DNA of 64,000 nt from a virus (lineage: Duplodnaviria > Heunggongvirae > Uroviricota > Caudoviricetes): IMG/VR virus record IMGVR_UViG_3300044951_001136; one strand, given 5' to 3'. The translations under genes were made by a program, and so were the position numbers. The notes below the pieces were generated by a model, which was given only the letters and a program-made list of their open reading frames with translations, ran no database searches and was not told the origin of the DNA. Below are positions 27,873 to 44,833 of this stretch, piece by piece. Within the stretch, counting starts at the first letter, position 1. Every line of letters starts with the position of its first letter.

Positions 27873-30800
27873 ATGGCCATAGTACAAATCTCAAAGATAA
27901 CACAACGAGCAGGAAATCTAGTTGATCTACCTCAGCTAGATAACGGCGAATTTGGTTGGGCAACCGACACAAATCGTCTTTTCATAGGCAAAACTGGAAA
28001 TGTTTATGCAGATGAAAATATTGAAGTACTAACTTCTTATTCAAATATAAATTTCAGTCAGATTACCGGCTCAGACGGAGGAAACTTTAATATTTCTGCT
28101 GCTCAAAATGGACAAATATTAACTTATGTGTCAAGTACTGATACTTGGGAAAATTATTCAGGTAATGCTAGTCAATTTGGCGGAACTAAACTACAATTAG
28201 GAAGTGTATCAAACATTTCAATGACAGGCGGAGCCATTGGGTATGTGCTAGAAACAGACGGCTTAGGTAATTTATCCTGGACACCTAAGAATTCTTTAAG
28301 AACTACTATAATAGGATTGACTAATAATGTAACTGGTAATATTGTTACAATGACAGTTGCAAACACTACTCCATATATCAACAGCCAATCAATTACTATA
28401 TCTGGCGCAAATATTTCTAATAGTAGCGCAAGTGCAAATATCAATAGTCAAACATTTTATGTTAAAGTTGATGCAAATTTTAGTGCTAATAGTAGTGTAG
28501 TTGGTTCAGGTAATGTAGTATTGTACACTGATACTGGTTTATCAACCACAGCCAATGGTGCTGGATTATTGTCGTATACAGCGAATACAGGTACTGCAAC
28601 AGCAGTACTAGGTAGCGGTAGCGGCGGCGCCGTCGCAGGTGGTTCAAATAGATCAGTACAATTTAATGACCAAGGCACCTCAAACGGTGTTGCAGGATTT
28701 ACATTTGATAAATCTACCGCAACCTTAACAGTTTTTTCAGGTAATATTAGTACTCAAAACATAAATGCAACATCACTAATTACTGCTCCTGTATTAATTT
28801 CCAATATTGCAACCGGTACGGCACCGTTAACCGTAACAAGTACAACACCAGTAGCTAATTTATCAGTAGCAACTGCAGGCAGTGCAACAACTGCCGGTAC
28901 AGTAACAACTGCGGCACAGGGTAATATCACAAGTGTTGGAATATTAACTGGATTAACAGTTGGTAATGTAACTGCTAATGCAGTATTTGGCAATGGAACA
29001 ATTGTATTGACGAGTTTAGGCAATATTACAGGTGGTAATTTATTAAGTGCGACATACTTAACAGGTACAGTAACAACTGCGGCACAGGGTAATATCACAA
29101 GTGTTGGAATATTAACTGGTCTTGTTGTTGCGGGTAATATTACACCTAATGCAAACATAACATATAATTTGGGTAATAATACAAATAGATTTAATGATTT
29201 GTATTTGGCTAATAGTACGATCTATATAGGCGCACAAACAATTAGTGCCAATACAACCTCTGTTTCTATATCTGGACAACTTGTTGCTACTATATCAGGT
29301 AGTGCAACTACAGCAGGTACGGTAACAACTGCGGCACAACCAAATATTACAAGTACCGGTTCATTGACAACTTTAACGGTTACTGGTAGCGCATTCCTTA
29401 GTACTACTAGCGGTAACGTGGGAATAGGCACTTCATCTAGTACTGCTAAATTAAGCGTTAACGGAGGAACAAGCACATCACAAATTCGCTGGGAAGTAAA
29501 TAACGCCGGCTATGTACAAGAGGTGTCTACCAACGCAGCACAAAGTGGGTATGTGTACAAGTCCACCGATGCTTCATACCATGTGTGGAAAACGAGTAGC
29601 TCACCAGCAATGACCCTTGATGCAAGTCAGAACCTTGGTATCGGGGTTGCGCCGAGTGCTGGCCGGTCGTTGACTGTAGGGAAAAATGTTACCGGAAGCG
29701 TGACTTCAATCGGAGTTCAGAATAACGGGCAAATTCAAAGTGATGTCATCAACAACTACATCGGATATTACTCATACCCATCCACTGTTGCAGCGGCATT
29801 TACGATACCGAGCCTCTATCACTACATAGCAGGCGGCATAAGTACCATGGGTGCCGGGTCTGCGGTTACCTACCAAACAGGTTTCCTTGCGGATTCTACG
29901 CTTACTGGTGCCACTAATAACTACGGGTTCCACGGGATTATCGCCGCTGCCACTGGCAGGTACAACCTGTACATGTCGGGGACTGCGGATAATTACTTGG
30001 CTGGCAAACTAATACTTGGCATAAGTCAAGGAGTTGTACAAAACGGCGCAGATGGCTACTTGGGTATTTCAGGTGGATCAAGTGTCGGACTTGGCGGTGC
30101 GATAATTGCATTCGGTGAGGCTCACGCTACCGCCCCCAACGAAATCCATTTCCGCAATAGTACGAACACCACACGGATGACCATCCTATCCGGCGGCAAC
30201 GTGGGTATTGCCAATATTGCCCCAACTCATACATTAAGTGTTACCGGTACCGCATCTGTTTCCGGTAATATAACAGCAGGTAATGTTGCAGCAACAACAT
30301 TCACCGGTGCATTAACAGGTAATGCAACTACAGCAGGTACAGTAACAACTGCGGCACAAGGTAATATCACAAGTGTTGGTACATTGACAGGTTTAAGTGT
30401 TTCCGGTAATATAACAGCAGGTAATGTTGCAGCAACAACATTCACCGGTGCCTTAACTGGTGCTGCAACTACAGCAGGTACAGTAACAACTGCGGCACAA
30501 GGTAATATAACAAGTGTTGGTACATTGACAAGTTTAAGTGTTACTGGTAATATAACAGCAGGTAATGTTTCAGCAACAACATTCATCGGTAATGCAACTA
30601 CAGCAGGAACAGTAACAACTGCGGCACAACCAAATATTACAAGTACCGGCACATTAACAAGTTCAAGTGTTACTGGTAATGTAAATATCAATACTGGAAC
30701 ACCGGTACAATATAATACAGATGGATCAATCATATCTGGTAGGCTATTAGGTAGGTATGCTAATCGTACGGGTAATATTAATTCTTATTTTGCTGATTAT

Positions 30801-38846: not shown

Positions 38847-38875
38847 TTGACATTAAATGGTTTTGGTGCTATAAT
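38847..38875 (+). promoter_or_regulatory. early sigma70 promoter
   Basis: TTGACA-17-TATAAT; 47 bp (38847-38893) identical to 39154-39200. Confidence 0.9.
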
Positions 38876-38907
38876 AGAATCTTAGACAGTAAAGAATAGG
38901 AAACAAA

Positions 38908-39135
38908 ATGCGTAGTTTTACTTTTGATCTAGTAGACATGATGGATGCTAATGGGCGTTGCCGCACAGTTGAAGGTGCTAAGTGGAATAAGCTAGCACTC
39001 AAGATGGTCAGTGAGGGTCGTGCTACTCTTGTAGAAAACAGCCGATCAATGACCGGATCCGGGACCGCATTTAGTAAATCGCATGATGTATGTTATTTGC
39101 GTTTCAACAAGACAGTTACCGAAAAGGTAAACTAA
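38908..39135 (+). CDS. early hypothetical protein (75 aa)
   Basis: AGGA RBS under its own promoter. Confidence 0.75.
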   Translation: MRSFTFDLVDMMDANGRCRTVEGAKWNKLALKMVSEGRATLVENSRSMTGSGTAFSKSHDVCYLRFNKTVTEKVN

Positions 39136-39153
39136 AAGTAGTATACTCTAAAT

Positions 39154-39182
39154 TTGACATTAAATGGTTTTGGTGCTATAAT
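39154..39182 (+). promoter_or_regulatory. early sigma70 promoter
   Basis: TTGACA-17-TATAAT. Confidence 0.9.
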
Positions 39183-39215
39183 AGAATCTTAGACAGTAAA
39201 CAAACGGAGTAAATT

Positions 39216-39473
39216 ATGTCAGCATTACAAGCATACATTGACCAAAAGAACAAATGGAACCGATTGTTCAAAGGCAAAGAATATGAGTTTGAAACTGCTA
39301 AGGGTCGGCAGGGCATTGCCAACAGCCTTGATGCTGACTTGAGCCCAGAGAACTTGTCCTGCGATGGCGAACTGAGCCGCACCCAAGTTAACGCACGATT
39401 CAAACAATTGATGGCCGCAGCAACTCAGTTGAAAAAACTGGATCCTAGCATTTGTATCTACGAATTAGGTTGA
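39216..39473 (+). CDS. early hypothetical protein (85 aa)
   Basis: GGAG RBS; stop TGA lies inside the next TTGACA. Confidence 0.8.
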   Translation: MSALQAYIDQKNKWNRLFKGKEYEFETAKGRQGIANSLDADLSPENLSCDGELSRTQVNARFKQLMAAATQLKKLDPSICIYELG

Positions 39474-39498
39474 CATTAAATGATTTTGGGTATATAAT
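39470..39498 (+). promoter_or_regulatory. early sigma70 promoter
   Basis: TTGACA-17-TATAAT. Confidence 0.9.
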
Positions 39499-39528
39499 AC
39501 TCTTATCAACTCGCAAAACGGAACAAAA

Positions 39529-39678
39529 ATGTCTTATATTCAACAAGCAATCCGCGAATGGGCTTGGATCGTGGGCGAGGAACGCCCGGATCAGCAATGG
39601 CTACTGACAGACTACGATTCATGGGTACCCAACCCGCACTATCGCGGTCCTGATCAAGGTCATCCCGAAGATTACTAA
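39529..39678 (+). CDS. early hypothetical protein (49 aa, below ORF-track cutoff)
   Basis: MSYIQQAIREWAWIVGEERPDQQWLLTDYDSWVPNPHYRGPDQGHPEDY*; fills the slot between two promoters; GGA RBS. Confidence 0.75.
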   Translation: MSYIQQAIREWAWIVGEERPDQQWLLTDYDSWVPNPHYRGPDQGHPEDY

Positions 39679-39689
39679 GATTAAGCAGG

Positions 39690-39718
39690 TTGACATTAAA
39701 TAGTTTTGGGTGTATAAT
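39690..39718 (+). promoter_or_regulatory. early sigma70 promoter
   Basis: TTGACA-17-TATAAT. Confidence 0.9.
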
Positions 39719-39751
39719 ACATACTTAGACAGTTAATTAAAGGACAACGCA

Positions 39752-39958
39752 ATGAATCAAATTCAGTATATCGCAGATGGTTACAACAAGAACCGTGAGC
39801 GGGTAGTTCTGTGGCGTACTGGCAACTATCAGTATCAACTGGAAGTTGCTGGCAAAAATACCAATTTCTCTGCTGAATATTATGATGCATTGGAGCGTTT
39901 CAAATCTCAAGTAGTTGAAGTGGTAGAAACTCCGGAAGATTTTGCTACTGTGGCTTGA
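39752..39958 (+). CDS. early hypothetical protein (68 aa)
   Basis: AAGGA RBS. Confidence 0.75.
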   Translation: MNQIQYIADGYNKNRERVVLWRTGNYQYQLEVAGKNTNFSAEYYDALERFKSQVVEVVETPEDFATVA

Positions 39959-40227
39959 AGGACAATATGATGAACTGTTTCCAAACCGTAGCATCTAATC
40001 TGCGTAACACAATCATGGGCAAGGAATTGCTGTTGGACACATACCAGAATCCATCAGTAAATCCTTACCCTAAAGGTGTAAAAGAAATGATGATTCAGAT
40101 GTTAGGAATCAACATTGGCGAACTACGGCGTATCTTGCAGGATGTGGAACAATGTATTTCCAAGGAACCTGAGTTCTCTGACGAGGATGACAAAGAAACC
40201 CGTATGGTGATTAGTGCAGGGCGGTAA
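39955..40227 (+). CDS. hypothetical protein
   Basis: Overlaps the upstream stop; start may be a downstream ATG after AAGGA. Confidence 0.65.
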   Translation: MKDNMMNCFQTVASNLRNTIMGKELLLDTYQNPSVNPYPKGVKEMMIQMLGINIGELRRILQDVEQCISKEPEFSDEDDKETRMVISAGR

Positions 40228-40235
40228 AATAAGTT

Positions 40236-40264
40236 TTGACATTAAGTGCAATCACTGTTATAAT
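40236..40264 (+). promoter_or_regulatory. early sigma70 promoter
   Basis: TTGACA-17-TATAAT. Confidence 0.85.
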
Positions 40265-40291: not shown

Positions 40292-41458
40292 ATGGCTACA
40301 CGCAAACATACGGATGAGCATTTTGTAAAAGCACTCAACCCACGTGATGCTGATACAAAATATATGGGTGAAGAACCTTTCTTCCCACTTCAACCTAATA
40401 CCGAAGCACGATTCTCGGCTCTTGCCCGCAGCTTTACTTGGTACACCCGATTCTATAGCAAAAAAGATGCTAGGGATTTGATGGCACAATATCTAGATTA
40501 CAATAAACGCCCTGATGAAGCCAAATTGCTTAGGAAAGTGCATGAAAGTGAATTCATTCTGACATTGTGCTGGATAGCACGAATGACAATGCGCGGGCTA
40601 GAATTGACTGAGCATGAAGAACTTGCCTTGCAAAATGACATCAAACGACTGATCAAGACACTAACCGAAACAGAAGTGAAAACTAGTCAAACTAGTATTG
40701 CTAAGGAAACTGTAGTAGCAACACGCCCCAATATTCAGGAAATTCTAAAAGAAAAGGCGGGAGAAGCAGCAGGTGAAATGGAAGGGATGATTGACGATTT
40801 TGTTACTAAAGGTAAAGCAACAGAAAAGACAGTTGATATCGTGGCAAAATATAATGTTATGCCACAGCATATCCCAATCATTGTTGAAATCTGGAAACGC
40901 AAACAAGCTGAATTTCAGAAACTTTCTGACGGTGACGAGTATCTTAAAGAGGGTTACAGGTTTCTAGGTAAGGTTCAGATTCGTAACATTCTCAAATTCA
41001 TTGATGGGGTTCTCAGTGACTTGAACAGCTACATTAGCATTAAGAAAGCAAGCAAGGCTCCTCGCAAGAAGAAGGCTGTACCTGTTGAAAAGATTGTTGC
41101 TAAATTGAAATACTTGAAGGTGTTCAAGGATGCGGCTGCAAAGCTAGACTTGATTAGCATTCACCCTACAAAGTTGCATGGTGCAAGTGAAGCGTGGGCC
41201 TATGATACTGCAAAGCGGCGCCTTCATCACTACATTGCTGATGAGTATAGCAAGGTGTTTACTGTTAAGGGTAGTACACTGCTAGGATTTGATTCAGCAA
41301 AGAGCGAAGTCAAAACACTACGCAAACCAGGGGAACAACTTAAAGAAGTTATGGGGAGCAAGCCGGCTGCACGAAAATATTTCACAGATATTAAAGCAGT
41401 AGCCTCTACGCCGAATGGCAGGTTTAATGAGTCAATGATAATTTTGAAAGCATGGTAA
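40292..41458 (+). CDS. conserved hypothetical T4-like phage protein (388 aa)
   Basis: Basic helical protein ending KTLRKP...NGRFNE; function not recognised. Confidence 0.75.
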   Translation: MATRKHTDEHFVKALNPRDADTKYMGEEPFFPLQPNTEARFSALARSFTWYTRFYSKKDARDLMAQYLDYNKRPDEAKLLRKVHESEFILTLCWIARMTMRGLELTEHEELALQNDIKRLIKTLTETEVKTSQTSIAKETVVATRPNIQEILKEKAGEAAGEMEGMIDDFVTKGKATEKTVDIVAKYNVMPQHIPIIVEIWKRKQAEFQKLSDGDEYLKEGYRFLGKVQIRNILKFIDGVLSDLNSYISIKKASKAPRKKKAVPVEKIVAKLKYLKVFKDAAAKLDLISIHPTKLHGASEAWAYDTAKRRLHHYIADEYSKVFTVKGSTLLGFDSAKSEVKTLRKPGEQLKEVMGSKPAARKYFTDIKAVASTPNGRFNESMIILKAW

Positions 41459-41898
41459 TGAATATAGATTTAAACAAATACAAAGATTTCGTAGAAGCTG
41501 TAACAAGCAAAGCAAGCAATGACTTGACTACATTTATGGATACATGTGATCGGCTTGATGCTAATTACGAATTAGTTGACGGTGAGATGAAGCACGGTCC
41601 TGATGTTAACATCCCGTTGCTACTTACTGCATGTTTGGGATTAGCCGCAGAAAGTGGTGAATTTATTGAAGTGCCCAAGAAGATCATTTTTCAGGGTAAA
41701 CCCCTCACTGATGAAAATGTCTTCCATATGAAACGTGAACTCGGTGACATTATGTGGTACTGGATAAATGCATGTCGTGCATTGAAACTTGATCCTAATG
41801 AAGTAATTGCAGAGAATGTACGCAAACTAGAGTCACGCTACCCCGGTGGAAAGTTTGACGCATTGTATAGCGAGAATCGTAAAGCTAATGATATTTAA
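41458..41898 (+). CDS. mazG: MazG-like NTP pyrophosphohydrolase
   Basis: GLAAESGEFIEVPKK...KRELGDIMWY; TAATG overlap. Confidence 0.88.
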   Translation: MNIDLNKYKDFVEAVTSKASNDLTTFMDTCDRLDANYELVDGEMKHGPDVNIPLLLTACLGLAAESGEFIEVPKKIIFQGKPLTDENVFHMKRELGDIMWYWINACRALKLDPNEVIAENVRKLESRYPGGKFDALYSENRKANDI

Positions 41899-41900
41899 TA

Positions 41901-41923
41901 AGTAGGGCAGTAGCCCTACTTTC
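41901..41923 (+). terminator. hairpin/terminator after mazG
   Basis: AGTAGGGC-AGTA-GCCCTACT-TTC. Confidence 0.65.
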
Positions 41924-41924
41924 A

Positions 41925-42340
41925 TTATTGGCTTATAGGCAGCGCCGCCTTGAAGTGTGCCATTAATCCGTCCACAATCCATGCGGTGACGGTAGTTAAG
42001 ATGAATGCCAACATCCAATTTACAGGACTACCCTTCGGGATGCCTAAACGCCTGCTCACTAGCAGTTCACGTTTCCTGTACCTTACTGGTTGAGATAGAG
42101 TAATCTACTATAAGCATTGCCGCGTCATAGTGATAGCGATAGAGGGCGCGGGCTGGTTAAATCTACCTGATGAATTGAAGATTTAACACACAGCGAATAC
42201 GGCAAAATCCCTTTACGGGTTAGTGAGACATAGACAATCCTCCACTGTAATTTTTGAATTCATCATCGCACTCCCGTAAGGGCCTCAGGAATAGACACCT
42301 TTTTGGCGAGTAGGTATTTTATATCTACTCGCCTTTGCCT
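41925..42340. ncRNA. candidate structured non-coding RNA (strand unresolved)
   Basis: About 420 nt without a credible ORF, GC-richer than other spacers, at least eight complementary segments including UUCG and GNRA hairpins. Confidence 0.45.
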
Positions 42341-42398
42341 AGAAATAGAATAAACAAATCAGTAATACCCAGATAAATACACTTATTAGGTAACATAT

Positions 42399-43196
42399 AT
42401 GTCAACATATCCAACAGCATCAGTTCTTTCTACACCAACTGGATTAAACCTAGATGAATTAAAAGAGTTATTATTCACTAATTTAAGATATCGTTTAGGT
42501 GATGGTATGATTGACCTTGAATTAGACCCGCAGCATTATGAAGCAGCATACACCTATGCCATAAAGATATATCGTCAAAGGGCACAAGCAGCCACTGAGG
42601 AATCGTACATATTGATGACTATTGAGAAAAATGTAGATACATATACTCTTCCCGCAGAGTTTATCAATGTTAGAAGTATTTTCCGTAGATCAATTGGTTT
42701 AGAAACAGGCCCGTCAAGTAGTAGTTTTGATCCTTTCTCCAGTGCTATTTTGAATACATACTTACTTAACTATAACTATGCCGGTGGTATGGCAACATAT
42801 GATTTCTATGCAGGGTATGTTAAATTAGCAGCAAGAATGTTTGGTGGTTATGTAACATATACATTTAATCCAGTGTCCAAAGTATTGCGTATTGTGCGAG
42901 ATCCAAAAGGATCAGGGGAACATGTATTGATATGGGCCGATGTACAAAAGACAGAAGAAATATTACTGCAAGACCCGGGTGCTGGAGTATGGATCGGTGA
43001 CTTTGTTTTAGCTAATCTTAAACTTATGATCGGAGAAGCCCGTGAAAAATTTGGAACTATTGCTGGTCCGGGTGGTGGCACATCATTGAACGGTACTGCT
43101 ATGAAAGCAGAAGGTAAAGCAGCAATGGAATTACTCATTGAAGATTTGAAGAAGTATGTGGATTTTTCTTTTCCCTTAACGTGGGTCCAAGGTTAG
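42399..43196 (+). CDS. neck/head-tail adaptor protein (T4 gp13-like)
   Basis: RYRLGDGMIDLELDPQHYE...GTIAGPGGGTSLNG..MKAEG; late promoter 42372-42379. Confidence 0.75.
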   Translation: MSTYPTASVLSTPTGLNLDELKELLFTNLRYRLGDGMIDLELDPQHYEAAYTYAIKIYRQRAQAATEESYILMTIEKNVDTYTLPAEFINVRSIFRRSIGLETGPSSSSFDPFSSAILNTYLLNYNYAGGMATYDFYAGYVKLAARMFGGYVTYTFNPVSKVLRIVRDPKGSGEHVLIWADVQKTEEILLQDPGAGVWIGDFVLANLKLMIGEAREKFGTIAGPGGGTSLNGTAMKAEGKAAMELLIEDLKKYVDFSFPLTWVQG

Positions 43197-43263: not shown

Positions 43264-43926
43264 ATGATTATTTTGGGGATCACCGGATTGATAGGATCTG
43301 GCAAAGACACCATTGCAGATTATCTCACCACACAGCATGGTTTCAAACGAGTCAGCTTTGCTGCTAGTCTTAAAGATGCAGTAGCAGCAGTTTTTGGATG
43401 GAATCGTGAGTATCTAGAAGGCACAACAAAAGCCAGCAGAGCATGGAGGGAGAAAAAAGATGAATGGTGGAGTAATCGTCTAGGTATGAACATTACTCCA
43501 AGATGGATTCTACAGTATTGGGGAACAGATGTATGTCGTAACCATTTTCATAATGCCATCTGGGTAGCAAGTGTAGAACACAAACTCTTAAACTCTAAAG
43601 AAGATGTTGTAATCACAGACTGTAGGTTTGACAATGAAGTTGCTGCTATTAAAAATGCAGGTGGAATAGCTATTAGAGTACAGCGTGGACCAAATCCTGA
43701 ATGGTATGATGCTGCAATTGCATATAATAGAGGACCAGATGGTAATTCATATTGGGCACTAAGTAAAATGAAGTTAGACAAACTAAAAATTCATGCTAGT
43801 GAGTACAGCAGCATAGGATTAAAATATGATTATGTTGTTGAAAATAATGGAACAATTGATGAGTTACATACCAAGATTCATACTATTATCAATAGTCAAT
43901 CTCAAGGTCTCCCCGTCTCCAAGTAA
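43264..43926 (+). CDS. deoxynucleoside monophosphate kinase (T4 gp1-like)
   Basis: GITGLIGSGKDT, SFAASLKD, PRWILQYWGTD, ITDCRFDNE. Confidence 0.9.
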   Translation: MIILGITGLIGSGKDTIADYLTTQHGFKRVSFAASLKDAVAAVFGWNREYLEGTTKASRAWREKKDEWWSNRLGMNITPRWILQYWGTDVCRNHFHNAIWVASVEHKLLNSKEDVVITDCRFDNEVAAIKNAGGIAIRVQRGPNPEWYDAAIAYNRGPDGNSYWALSKMKLDKLKIHASEYSSIGLKYDYVVENNGTIDELHTKIHTIINSQSQGLPVSK

Positions 43927-44833
43927 TCTCTTTCTTTTTCACAACTTCTATGCAGTTTAAGCAAATGCTGCGTAGATTAGTTTGTTCATTGTGATCCAAG
44001 TGCCCATCAACATGAAATACTGTTATTTGTGTAACGAATAAACTCTTAAAGCCACATAAATCACATGTGGCTTTTTTCTTATAACCACTCTTAGTCCAAT
44101 TGGCTTTTTGTGGTTTTTGCTTCTGCTTCTTCCTACTACATTCATCACATATGCTTCTGTAATGTGTAACACCGGCACGTTTATAGTTCACTGCTGCGTG
44201 ATTCTTGTTACATTTATTGCAGAATGGCCGATTATTGTAATTGGGTTTTGAACCGTATGTGCCGTTGTCTATTGCTTTTTGTTTTCTTCTATCACGCTCG
44301 CCGACCCGCCTTTTTATTTTTTCTTCATTTTCTAATTTTTTAATTTCTTTGACCTTATTTTTTTCTTCCAGTTGACGAATTTTGGATAGCCGGTTTAGTT
44401 CTCGTTGATGCAATCTTTCTTCTCTTTTTTTGTTTCTTTCAAGTCGTTTTGCTTCATTGAAAGGTGCAATTGACGCTTTTTGTTTTTGGATGGATTCTTT
44501 ACTTTTAGGTCTGCCTTTTGTCCAACCTGGTCCTCTATGTCCACCGGGAGCAATGTTCCATCCAGTTGCTTTTTTTGGTCTTAGTATTTCTTCCATTTCA
44601 TAGCAATAAGATTCTTCACCGCATAAGATAACATCTTTGATTAGATTGTCCCATCCATATTTCCTAACTGCATGTATTAGATGTGGATTTTTATGTTTCT
44701 TGTTATTAATGTCATTCAAATGTCCTTTTAACCTACGGGCATAATCTTTAGAGACTCCAACATATCCGTCGGTAGCTGCATTAGTGTGTTCCGGTAGATG
44801 TATCCAATAGATAACAGTACTTTTTATATTCAT
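43889..44833 (-). CDS. GIY-YIG endonuclease fused to C-terminal zinc-finger/HNH-like domain
   Basis: IYWI...GYVG...R..H, E..I...GWNIAPGG; C-terminal CxxC pairs and HVDGHLDHNEQTNLRSICLNC; TATAAATA at 44872-44865. Confidence 0.8.
   Translation of the reverse strand: MNIKSTVIYWIHLPEHTNAATDGYVGVSKDYARRLKGHLNDINNKKHKNPHLIHAVRKYGWDNLIKDVILCGEESYCYEMEEILRPKKATGWNIAPGGHRGPGWTKGRPKSKESIQKQKASIAPFNEAKRLERNKKREERLHQRELNRLSKIRQLEEKNKVKEIKKLENEEKIKRRVGERDRRKQKAIDNGTYGSKPNYNNRPFCNKCNKNHAAVNYKRAGVTHYRSICDECSRKKQKQKPQKANWTKSGYKKKATCDLCGFKSLFVTQITVFHVDGHLDHNEQTNLRSICLNCIEVVKKKEITWRRGDLEIDY

Follow-up and report, generated by a model that had tools for sequence, protein, structure and literature searches.

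The mazG-gp13 gap

The window, by which we mean the whole stretch of 64,000 nucleotides that was analysed, is part of a large T4-like phage whose closest cultured relatives in gp13, from jumbo phages, are 35-38% identical. Between its mazG-like gene and its gp13-like neck gene lies a gene-free gap of 500 nt (41899-42398), the longest true gap of the window; the apparently larger gaps at ~62-63 kb arise because an ORF there continues past the end of the window. The GC content of the gap is 0.43, against ~0.2-0.35 for most spacers, and an earlier note on this DNA, which had described the gap as the longest non-coding one and as GC-richer than other spacers, was right on both points. Folding energy computed from the single sequence is by itself unremarkable (z of -1.5 for the + strand and -2.0 for the - strand). 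The features of the locus are:

40236-40264, + strand: last of five sigma70-type promoters (12/12 match), heading a unit of a 388-aa gene, mazG and the RNA; putative source of the RNA's transcript
41452-41898, + strand: mazG-like pyrophosphatase gene, the upstream neighbour (phrog_229, E 9e-45)
41900-41921, + strand: GC hairpin with an imperfect U tail, a leaky terminator or processing stem; a hairpin is present there in ~15 of 46 homologues
~41926-42346, + strand: structured non-coding RNA of ~420 nt, its ends placed by conservation
42372-42379, + strand: late promoter motif of the T4 type, GATAAATA, serving the neck gene (late-type ATAAATA at 42373)
42399-43196, + strand: gp13-like head-tail adaptor (neck) gene, the downstream neighbour (phrog_211)

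The early-to-late boundary at which the earlier note had placed the gap agrees with the sigma70-type promoters upstream, all five of them perfect (TTGACA-17-TATAAT, 12/12 matches) and lying within 1.4 kb at 38847-40264, and with the late-type motif downstream. Because that late promoter motif is also found in relatives that lack the RNA, we do not count it as part of the RNA. In RNA-less spacers such as L004:2950-3003, a hairpin GTGTTACC...GGTAACAC lies over the late promoter and ribosome-binding site of gp13, and we liken it to hairpins of T4 that keep early readthrough transcripts from being translated.

Elsewhere in the window, 43889-44833 on the - strand encodes a 314-aa GIY-YIG-like protein with a C-terminal zinc/HNH-like part, which in relatives is a stand-alone ORF of 113-135 aa; this protein could be a driver of co-conversion of nearby DNA. 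At another locus, L147, a GIY-YIG-like ORF lies directly 5' of the RNA. The window also contains genes for an RNA ligase (PF09414, 10046-11101) and an IscA-like Fe-S protein (PF01521, 25800-26120).

Homologues and genomic contexts

Motif scans and nhmmer located homologues of the RNA at ~110 public viral and metagenome loci, a count that includes some contigs fetched twice. From these we obtained 46 non-redundant full-length homologues, 46-87% identical to the window RNA. They occur in three contexts in two unrelated phage groups:

Class A: the mazG-gp13 site, upstream of gp13, in large T4-like phages
Class B: in an unrelated group of smaller phages (L172 and others), close to the terminase region
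Class C: after an Hjc-like resolvase gene and facing convergent baseplate-type genes, in the same T4-like group as class A (L193, L225, L243, L277, L297)

The neighbours of the RNA thus differ across contexts, and it is bound to no single neighbouring gene. One 277-kb contig carries two divergent copies (L145 and L248, at positions 30334 and 251108), and a near-full copy was found on aquatic metagenome contigs. We found no match in cultured phage genomes or in the bacterial genomes of GTDB, where all four pattern matches were due to chance. No partner protein came to light: only tail-fibre-like proteins were common to both phage groups in the limited flanking DNA that was compared.

Repeated elements flank some of the loci. 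In L193, L225 and L243, three to four spaced repeats of the CTCAGGTC type are found ~100 nt 5' of the class C RNA, in the interval that separates it from the resolvase gene. Tracts of GCGAAGC/GCGTAGC-like mini-hairpins are found 50-150 nt 3' of the RNA in classes B and C and in some class A loci (L248, L155, L174, L191).

Covariation and strand

The earlier note had proposed testing covariation in relatives, and across the 46 homologues it is strong. For the 73 base pairs of our model, 95.2% of alignment cells are paired, and 58 of the 73 pairs show double changes; none of 500 shuffles was as good, and controls in which the model was slid along the alignment gave 33-47% pairing. Under a tree-aware null, in which substitutions were re-dealt along a tree, 11 pairs reach E<=0.08, every one of them a canonical helix pair, while the single pairs of the pseudoknots are weaker (E 0.25-5). 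Pseudoknots PK1, PK3 and PK4 are paired in 91-100% of cells and PK2, in which alignment registers vary, in 75%. Unbiased mutual information, RNAalifold and pair counts concur on the fold.

The strand is indicated by 77 G.U cells versus 18 A.C cells. GNRA loops are kept in 19/19 and 44/46 members, and a U.G pair stands at 42125/42146 in 35 of the 46 homologues. A conserved short ORF or decayed gene, which the earlier note had named as a competing explanation, was also looked for: no ORF is shared among eight representatives, frame-breaking indels occur throughout, and compensatory change is seen in nearly every helix. Class C keeps the topology of the fold with largely different sequence. On this comparative evidence the element is almost certainly a real structured RNA of the + strand.

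Fold of the RNA

Four pseudoknots and a three-way junction, whose loop is near-invariant, mark the fold of the RNA, along with GNRA loops and a tail at the 3' end; many of the unpaired bases are invariant. The parts, all on the + strand, are:

41928-42015, + strand: 5' domain, with the same topology but different sequence in class C
41928-32/42007-11, + strand: PK1, in the 5' domain
41937-40/41947-50 (stem) and 41943-45/41957-59 (PK2), + strand: H-type pseudoknot of the 5' domain
41968-71/41989-92, + strand: hairpin of the 5' domain
42000-15, + strand: hairpin presenting the PK1 strand
42021-42080, + strand: junction domain, with closing helix 42021-27/42074-80
42028-30 (CUA), 42039-43 (GAYGC) and 42046-48 (AAA), + strand: invariant bases of the junction domain
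42096-42107, + strand: optional hairpin, found in 19 members, each time with a GNRA loop
42120-42151, + strand: helix 42120-26/42145-51, whose loop holds GURA (42130-33) and the PK3 strand (42135-43); strongest covariation
42152-42194, + strand: long hairpin whose loop (42168-75) forms PK4 with 42258-65
42195-42256, + strand: three-way junction domain, with helices 42203-07/42252-56, 42209-11/42217-19 and 42222-25/42243-46
42227-40, + strand: near-invariant loop GAYAUAGWCAAUCC of the three-way junction
42195-96/42238-39, + strand: tertiary pairs of the three-way junction domain
42283-42292, + strand: direct repeat R1, of the CCU(C)AAGAAU type
42305-42334, + strand: 3' switch, in which strand 42324-34 pairs with loop 42135-43 (PK3) or locally with 42305-13
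42338-42346, + strand: direct repeat R2, co-varying with R1

All ten motifs listed in the earlier note are present in the window at the positions that it gave, and several of the helices that it proposed are backed by covariation: all 7 bp of TACAGGA/TCCTGTA, the CCGCGTC/GGCGCGG helix, the hairpin of 42156/42179 (in a register that varies) and, of the CCGTC/GACGG hairpin, CCGT/ACGG. The cUUCGg hairpin and the CCC-GTAA-GGG hairpin exist in the window but vary among homologues, the former being found in 8 of 46. Its two long-range proposals fared worse: CTCACTAGC/GTTAGTGAG is paired in only 6/46 and 15/46 homologues at two positions, and GGCAAA/TTTGCC in 8/45 at one position, CAAAA 42203-07 pairing with 42252-56 instead. 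The four supported pseudoknots were absent from its account.

Two further candidate pairings, GGUUG 42088-92 with CAAUC 42235-39 and UGCC 42041-44 with GGCA 42201-04, were dropped when inspection of the alignment revealed no covariation. L191:7372-7775 (- strand) has the invariant loop motif GACATAGACAATC twice, the additional copy being located in the PK4 hairpin stem.

The 3' tail

The strand at 42324-34 can pair in two ways, and the GGCGAGTAG/CTACTCGCC hairpin of the earlier note, which is partly conserved, is one of the alternatives. Both partners are kept better than in shuffles (0/300 each, by shuffles that ignore kinship). When PK3 forms, C42328 and C42333 are left bulged.

R1 and R2 are more alike within a member than across members (5.8 vs 4.7 of 7 identical; 0/2000 shuffles), and the pair 42288/42342 between them has an E of 0.25 in the tree-aware null. 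Class C has a different repeated pair in place of R1/R2. A scan of the whole RNA gave no Watson-Crick partner for either repeat, and the U-rich strand between them was rejected as a common partner, its covariation not being significant (112/300 and 32/300). We take R1 and R2 to resemble the CCUAAG strand of GNRA receptors.

Loss, regain and exchange of modules

Among 80 gp13 relatives, most have a spacer of 45-55 nt after mazG, and 5 carry the RNA. In a quick gp13 tree, for which RNA-positive rows had been sampled by RNA motif, the window falls in a clade with 96% support in which 33 of 35 rows are without the RNA. The core motif is absent from the whole of four RNA-less contigs (171-303 kb, 49-86% complete). 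The core of the window RNA is 87-92% identical to that of L109, L152, L154, L155 and L131, against only 69-74% for gp13. In a DNA comparison with L152, identity is highest over mazG and the RNA (82% vs 69-72% on the flanks). This mismatch and this peak of identity, in a mostly RNA-less clade, indicate that the window lineage regained the RNA laterally, through recombination at a slot that is hypervariable and shows no target duplication.

Exchange within the RNA is apparent in a near-identical phage (L002:796-900, L003:2517-2620), with 99% identity in gp13 and 90% in mazG. Its RNA 5' domain is 56-68% identical to that of the window, while the remainder of the RNA is 94-95% identical; to judge from these figures, recombination within the RNA has exchanged the 5' domain as a unit. 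Other relatives carry alternative cargo in the mazG-gp13 slot, namely a 232-aa ORF, zinc-ribbon ORFs of 64-72 aa and a 312-aa repeat protein (L008, L026, L031, L037, L049, L062). Comparison of the loci shows the RNA to be optional and mobile.

Comparison with known RNAs

The earlier note could match the region to no tRNA, tmRNA, RNase P or intron consensus, and for the first three our searches agree with it. An Infernal/Rfam scan of the kind that it proposed, run on the window and distant members both at the gathering cut-off and at E<=10, returned no relevant match, and no GOLLD, ROOL, tmRNA, RNase P or group II RNA; ARAGORN found no tRNA gene in the window, and there was none in 12 loci. As a positive control, Rfam scored four phage GOLLDs (RF02032) at 151-216 bits and did not score the window RNA, and the family HMM found nothing in the same four GOLLDs.

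The closest likenesses are to large RNAs of phages. GOLLD (RF02032) is likewise a large, ornate and optional phage ncRNA with pseudoknots (phage members of 414-487 nt) and an obscure function, but the window RNA lacks its tRNA context, has other motifs and gives no covariance-model match. ROOL too is a multi-pseudoknot ncRNA of phages and prophages; it is longer (~580-660 nt) and often near tRNAs. The window RNA gave no match to the Rfam model of ROOL, in a search whose positive control was GOLLD only. The part of the published ROOL alignment that was compared holds none of the core motifs, except one unrelated 9-mer. ROOL is non-essential in one host and forms RNA-only cages, and the cages of GOLLD and ROOL are built via kissing loops that were first detected as covarying pseudoknots (10.1101/2024.12.08.627333). 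tmRNA shares the number of four pseudoknots, and the 5' H-type knot of the window RNA looks like its pk1; the window RNA differs in having no tRNA-like domain, no tag reading frame and no ARAGORN or Rfam match.

Two catalytic RNAs were considered and rejected. For RNase P RNA, a GAGGA..GUC look-alike on the minus strand has no CR-V partner, the strand evidence favours +, and Rfam gave no match. For a group II or permuted group II RNA, neither D5 (AGC/CGC triad) nor D6 was seen by inspection, and Rfam gave no match at E<=10. Circularly permuted group II RNAs offer a precedent: an ornate RNA that stood free, had no ORF and carried additional pseudoknots at its 5' end turned out to be a ribozyme in rearranged form; the report on them does not mention phages (PMC8637638).

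We found no publication on this RNA family, including by a motif search; the candidates of Fremin 2023 are <=151 nt, so a fragment may be listed there. With a length of >350 nt, no coding capacity, and many covarying helices and pseudoknots, the RNA has the attributes of a large ornate phage ncRNA, and it is a new class within that known kind.

Expression and proposed role

The 5' edge of the RNA adjoins the stop codons of many different genes, and no conserved promoter was found next to it among the homologues. Among the assembled contigs of four sequencing runs, one metatranscriptome contig spans 42072-42294; because the neighbouring genes are also covered, it says nothing on expression of the RNA. 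We infer that the RNA is co-transcribed with the early operon and then processed.

The reading that we favour, and hold about equally likely to be right or wrong, is that of a trans-acting, self-folding scaffold RNA from the end of the early operon, similar in role to GOLLD and ROOL. The RNA, which would lack a promoter of its own, would form the 3' end of the early-operon transcript, starting in the window at the sigma70 promoters (38847-40264), and processing at the AU-rich 5' edge would set it free. It would be kept in the shape of a compact particle by GNRA docking and by pairings between loops. Some of these contacts might be made between copies, as in GOLLD and ROOL, giving a compact or multimeric particle. 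Strand 42324-34 would first form the local hairpin and later dock into loop 42135-43, and we therefore propose that the RNA is locked only once it has been fully made. During infection it would act in trans, as a scaffold or as a decoy for a host or phage factor. If, as we also propose, its benefit is conditional, loss in one clade and lateral regain would follow. A ribozyme or a switch would be as compatible as a scaffold with the bistable 3' end and with the large number of invariant bases at the junctions.

The main rival, which we regard as unlikely, is a self-processing ribozyme, possibly descended, in rewired form, from the core of a phage group IA intron. A P7-like centre would be built from the invariant CUA and GAYAUAGWC; the substrates used one after the other would be either the direct repeats or the two partners of the 3' strand; and the outcome would be release or circularisation of the RNA, or protection of the operon 3' end; release from the operon is something that the RNA needs. 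The two most conserved stretches do resemble the R and S elements of group I introns and stand in intron order: as in the group IA introns of T4 (td, nrdB, nrdD), an R-like GACUA is followed by a CCC/GGG hairpin and then by an S-like GAGAYAUAGWC, with a CGAAWAC-GG-hairpin segment between R and S. In T4, the td and nrdB cores are among the weak matches of the family HMM (E 2-4). Against a profile of 113 intron cores two class C members reach p=0.003 and 0.016 and score far below true introns. Rfam detects only one of the three T4 introns, so its silence is weak evidence on group I. The three-way junction may recall P3/P8/P15 of the lariat-capping ribozyme GIR1.

Against these likenesses, the window itself scores 14 on the intron profile (p=0.10) vs a median of 56 for introns, and a covariance model built on the junction fails to retrieve introns. 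The bases of the R-like element pair elsewhere: G42026, the analogue of the G-site, covaries with 42075 (A-U in L129 and L174), which leaves A.C versus 42235. The next would-be P7 pair is A.A in 38/46 homologues, and the 262-312-type pair is absent. The RNA has no G-binding pair, P4-P6, P9 or exons and interrupts no gene, being intergenic in all loci; its covarying helices cannot be mapped onto P4-P6, and P1/P10 and the terminal G are wanting too. A group I intron as such was therefore rejected, and remote group I ancestry is a lead. In its most far-reaching form, to which we give a rather low probability, the ribozyme would be a new free-standing phage class, possibly with a strand-swapped group IA core, acting on its own 3' repeats or on host RNA and spreading between unrelated phages.

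We consider a cis-acting switch at the end of the early operon distinctly improbable. It would act on termination, readthrough or stability, with the 3' strand as its expression platform and with central domains as the sensor of a ligand or protein. The two pairings of 42324-34, each better than all shuffles, the early/late boundary position in class A, and a U-run after the local hairpin in class C members L225 and L243 agree with it; however, class A shows no U-tract 3' of the hairpin, a separate late promoter serves gp13, the downstream genes vary by context and are convergent in class C, and close relatives without the RNA show no replacement.

The replication origin that the earlier note had offered beside a large phage ncRNA is very improbable. 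A DNA-level element, whether an origin or an ssDNA initiation structure, would suit a long non-coding site at an operon end and the GCGAAGC-like tracts downstream in classes B and C, but G.U pairs and GNRA loops are conserved, UUCG loops occur, the RNA is missing from most close relatives, and cumulative GC skew makes no turn at 42 kb. The other half of that proposal, the ncRNA, stands on the conservation, covariation, indels and want of a shared ORF among the 46 homologues. The last alternative, that the hypervariable slot houses a neutral passenger, a small ORF or what is left of a decayed gene, recalls the various small ORFs that the slot holds in other relatives, but it is largely refuted by covariation, along with the frame-breaking indels and the absence of a common frame, and has next to no probability.

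Significance

Few classes of large, highly structured orphan RNA are known in bacteria and phages, and several of these proved to be ribozymes or RNA-only nanocages. The window RNA is a further orphan class with a fold of its own. At ~420 nt it is of a size that makes in vitro transcription and study feasible at once, and the pairs of close relatives with and without it, together with its lateral regain, suggest selection and make its function testable.
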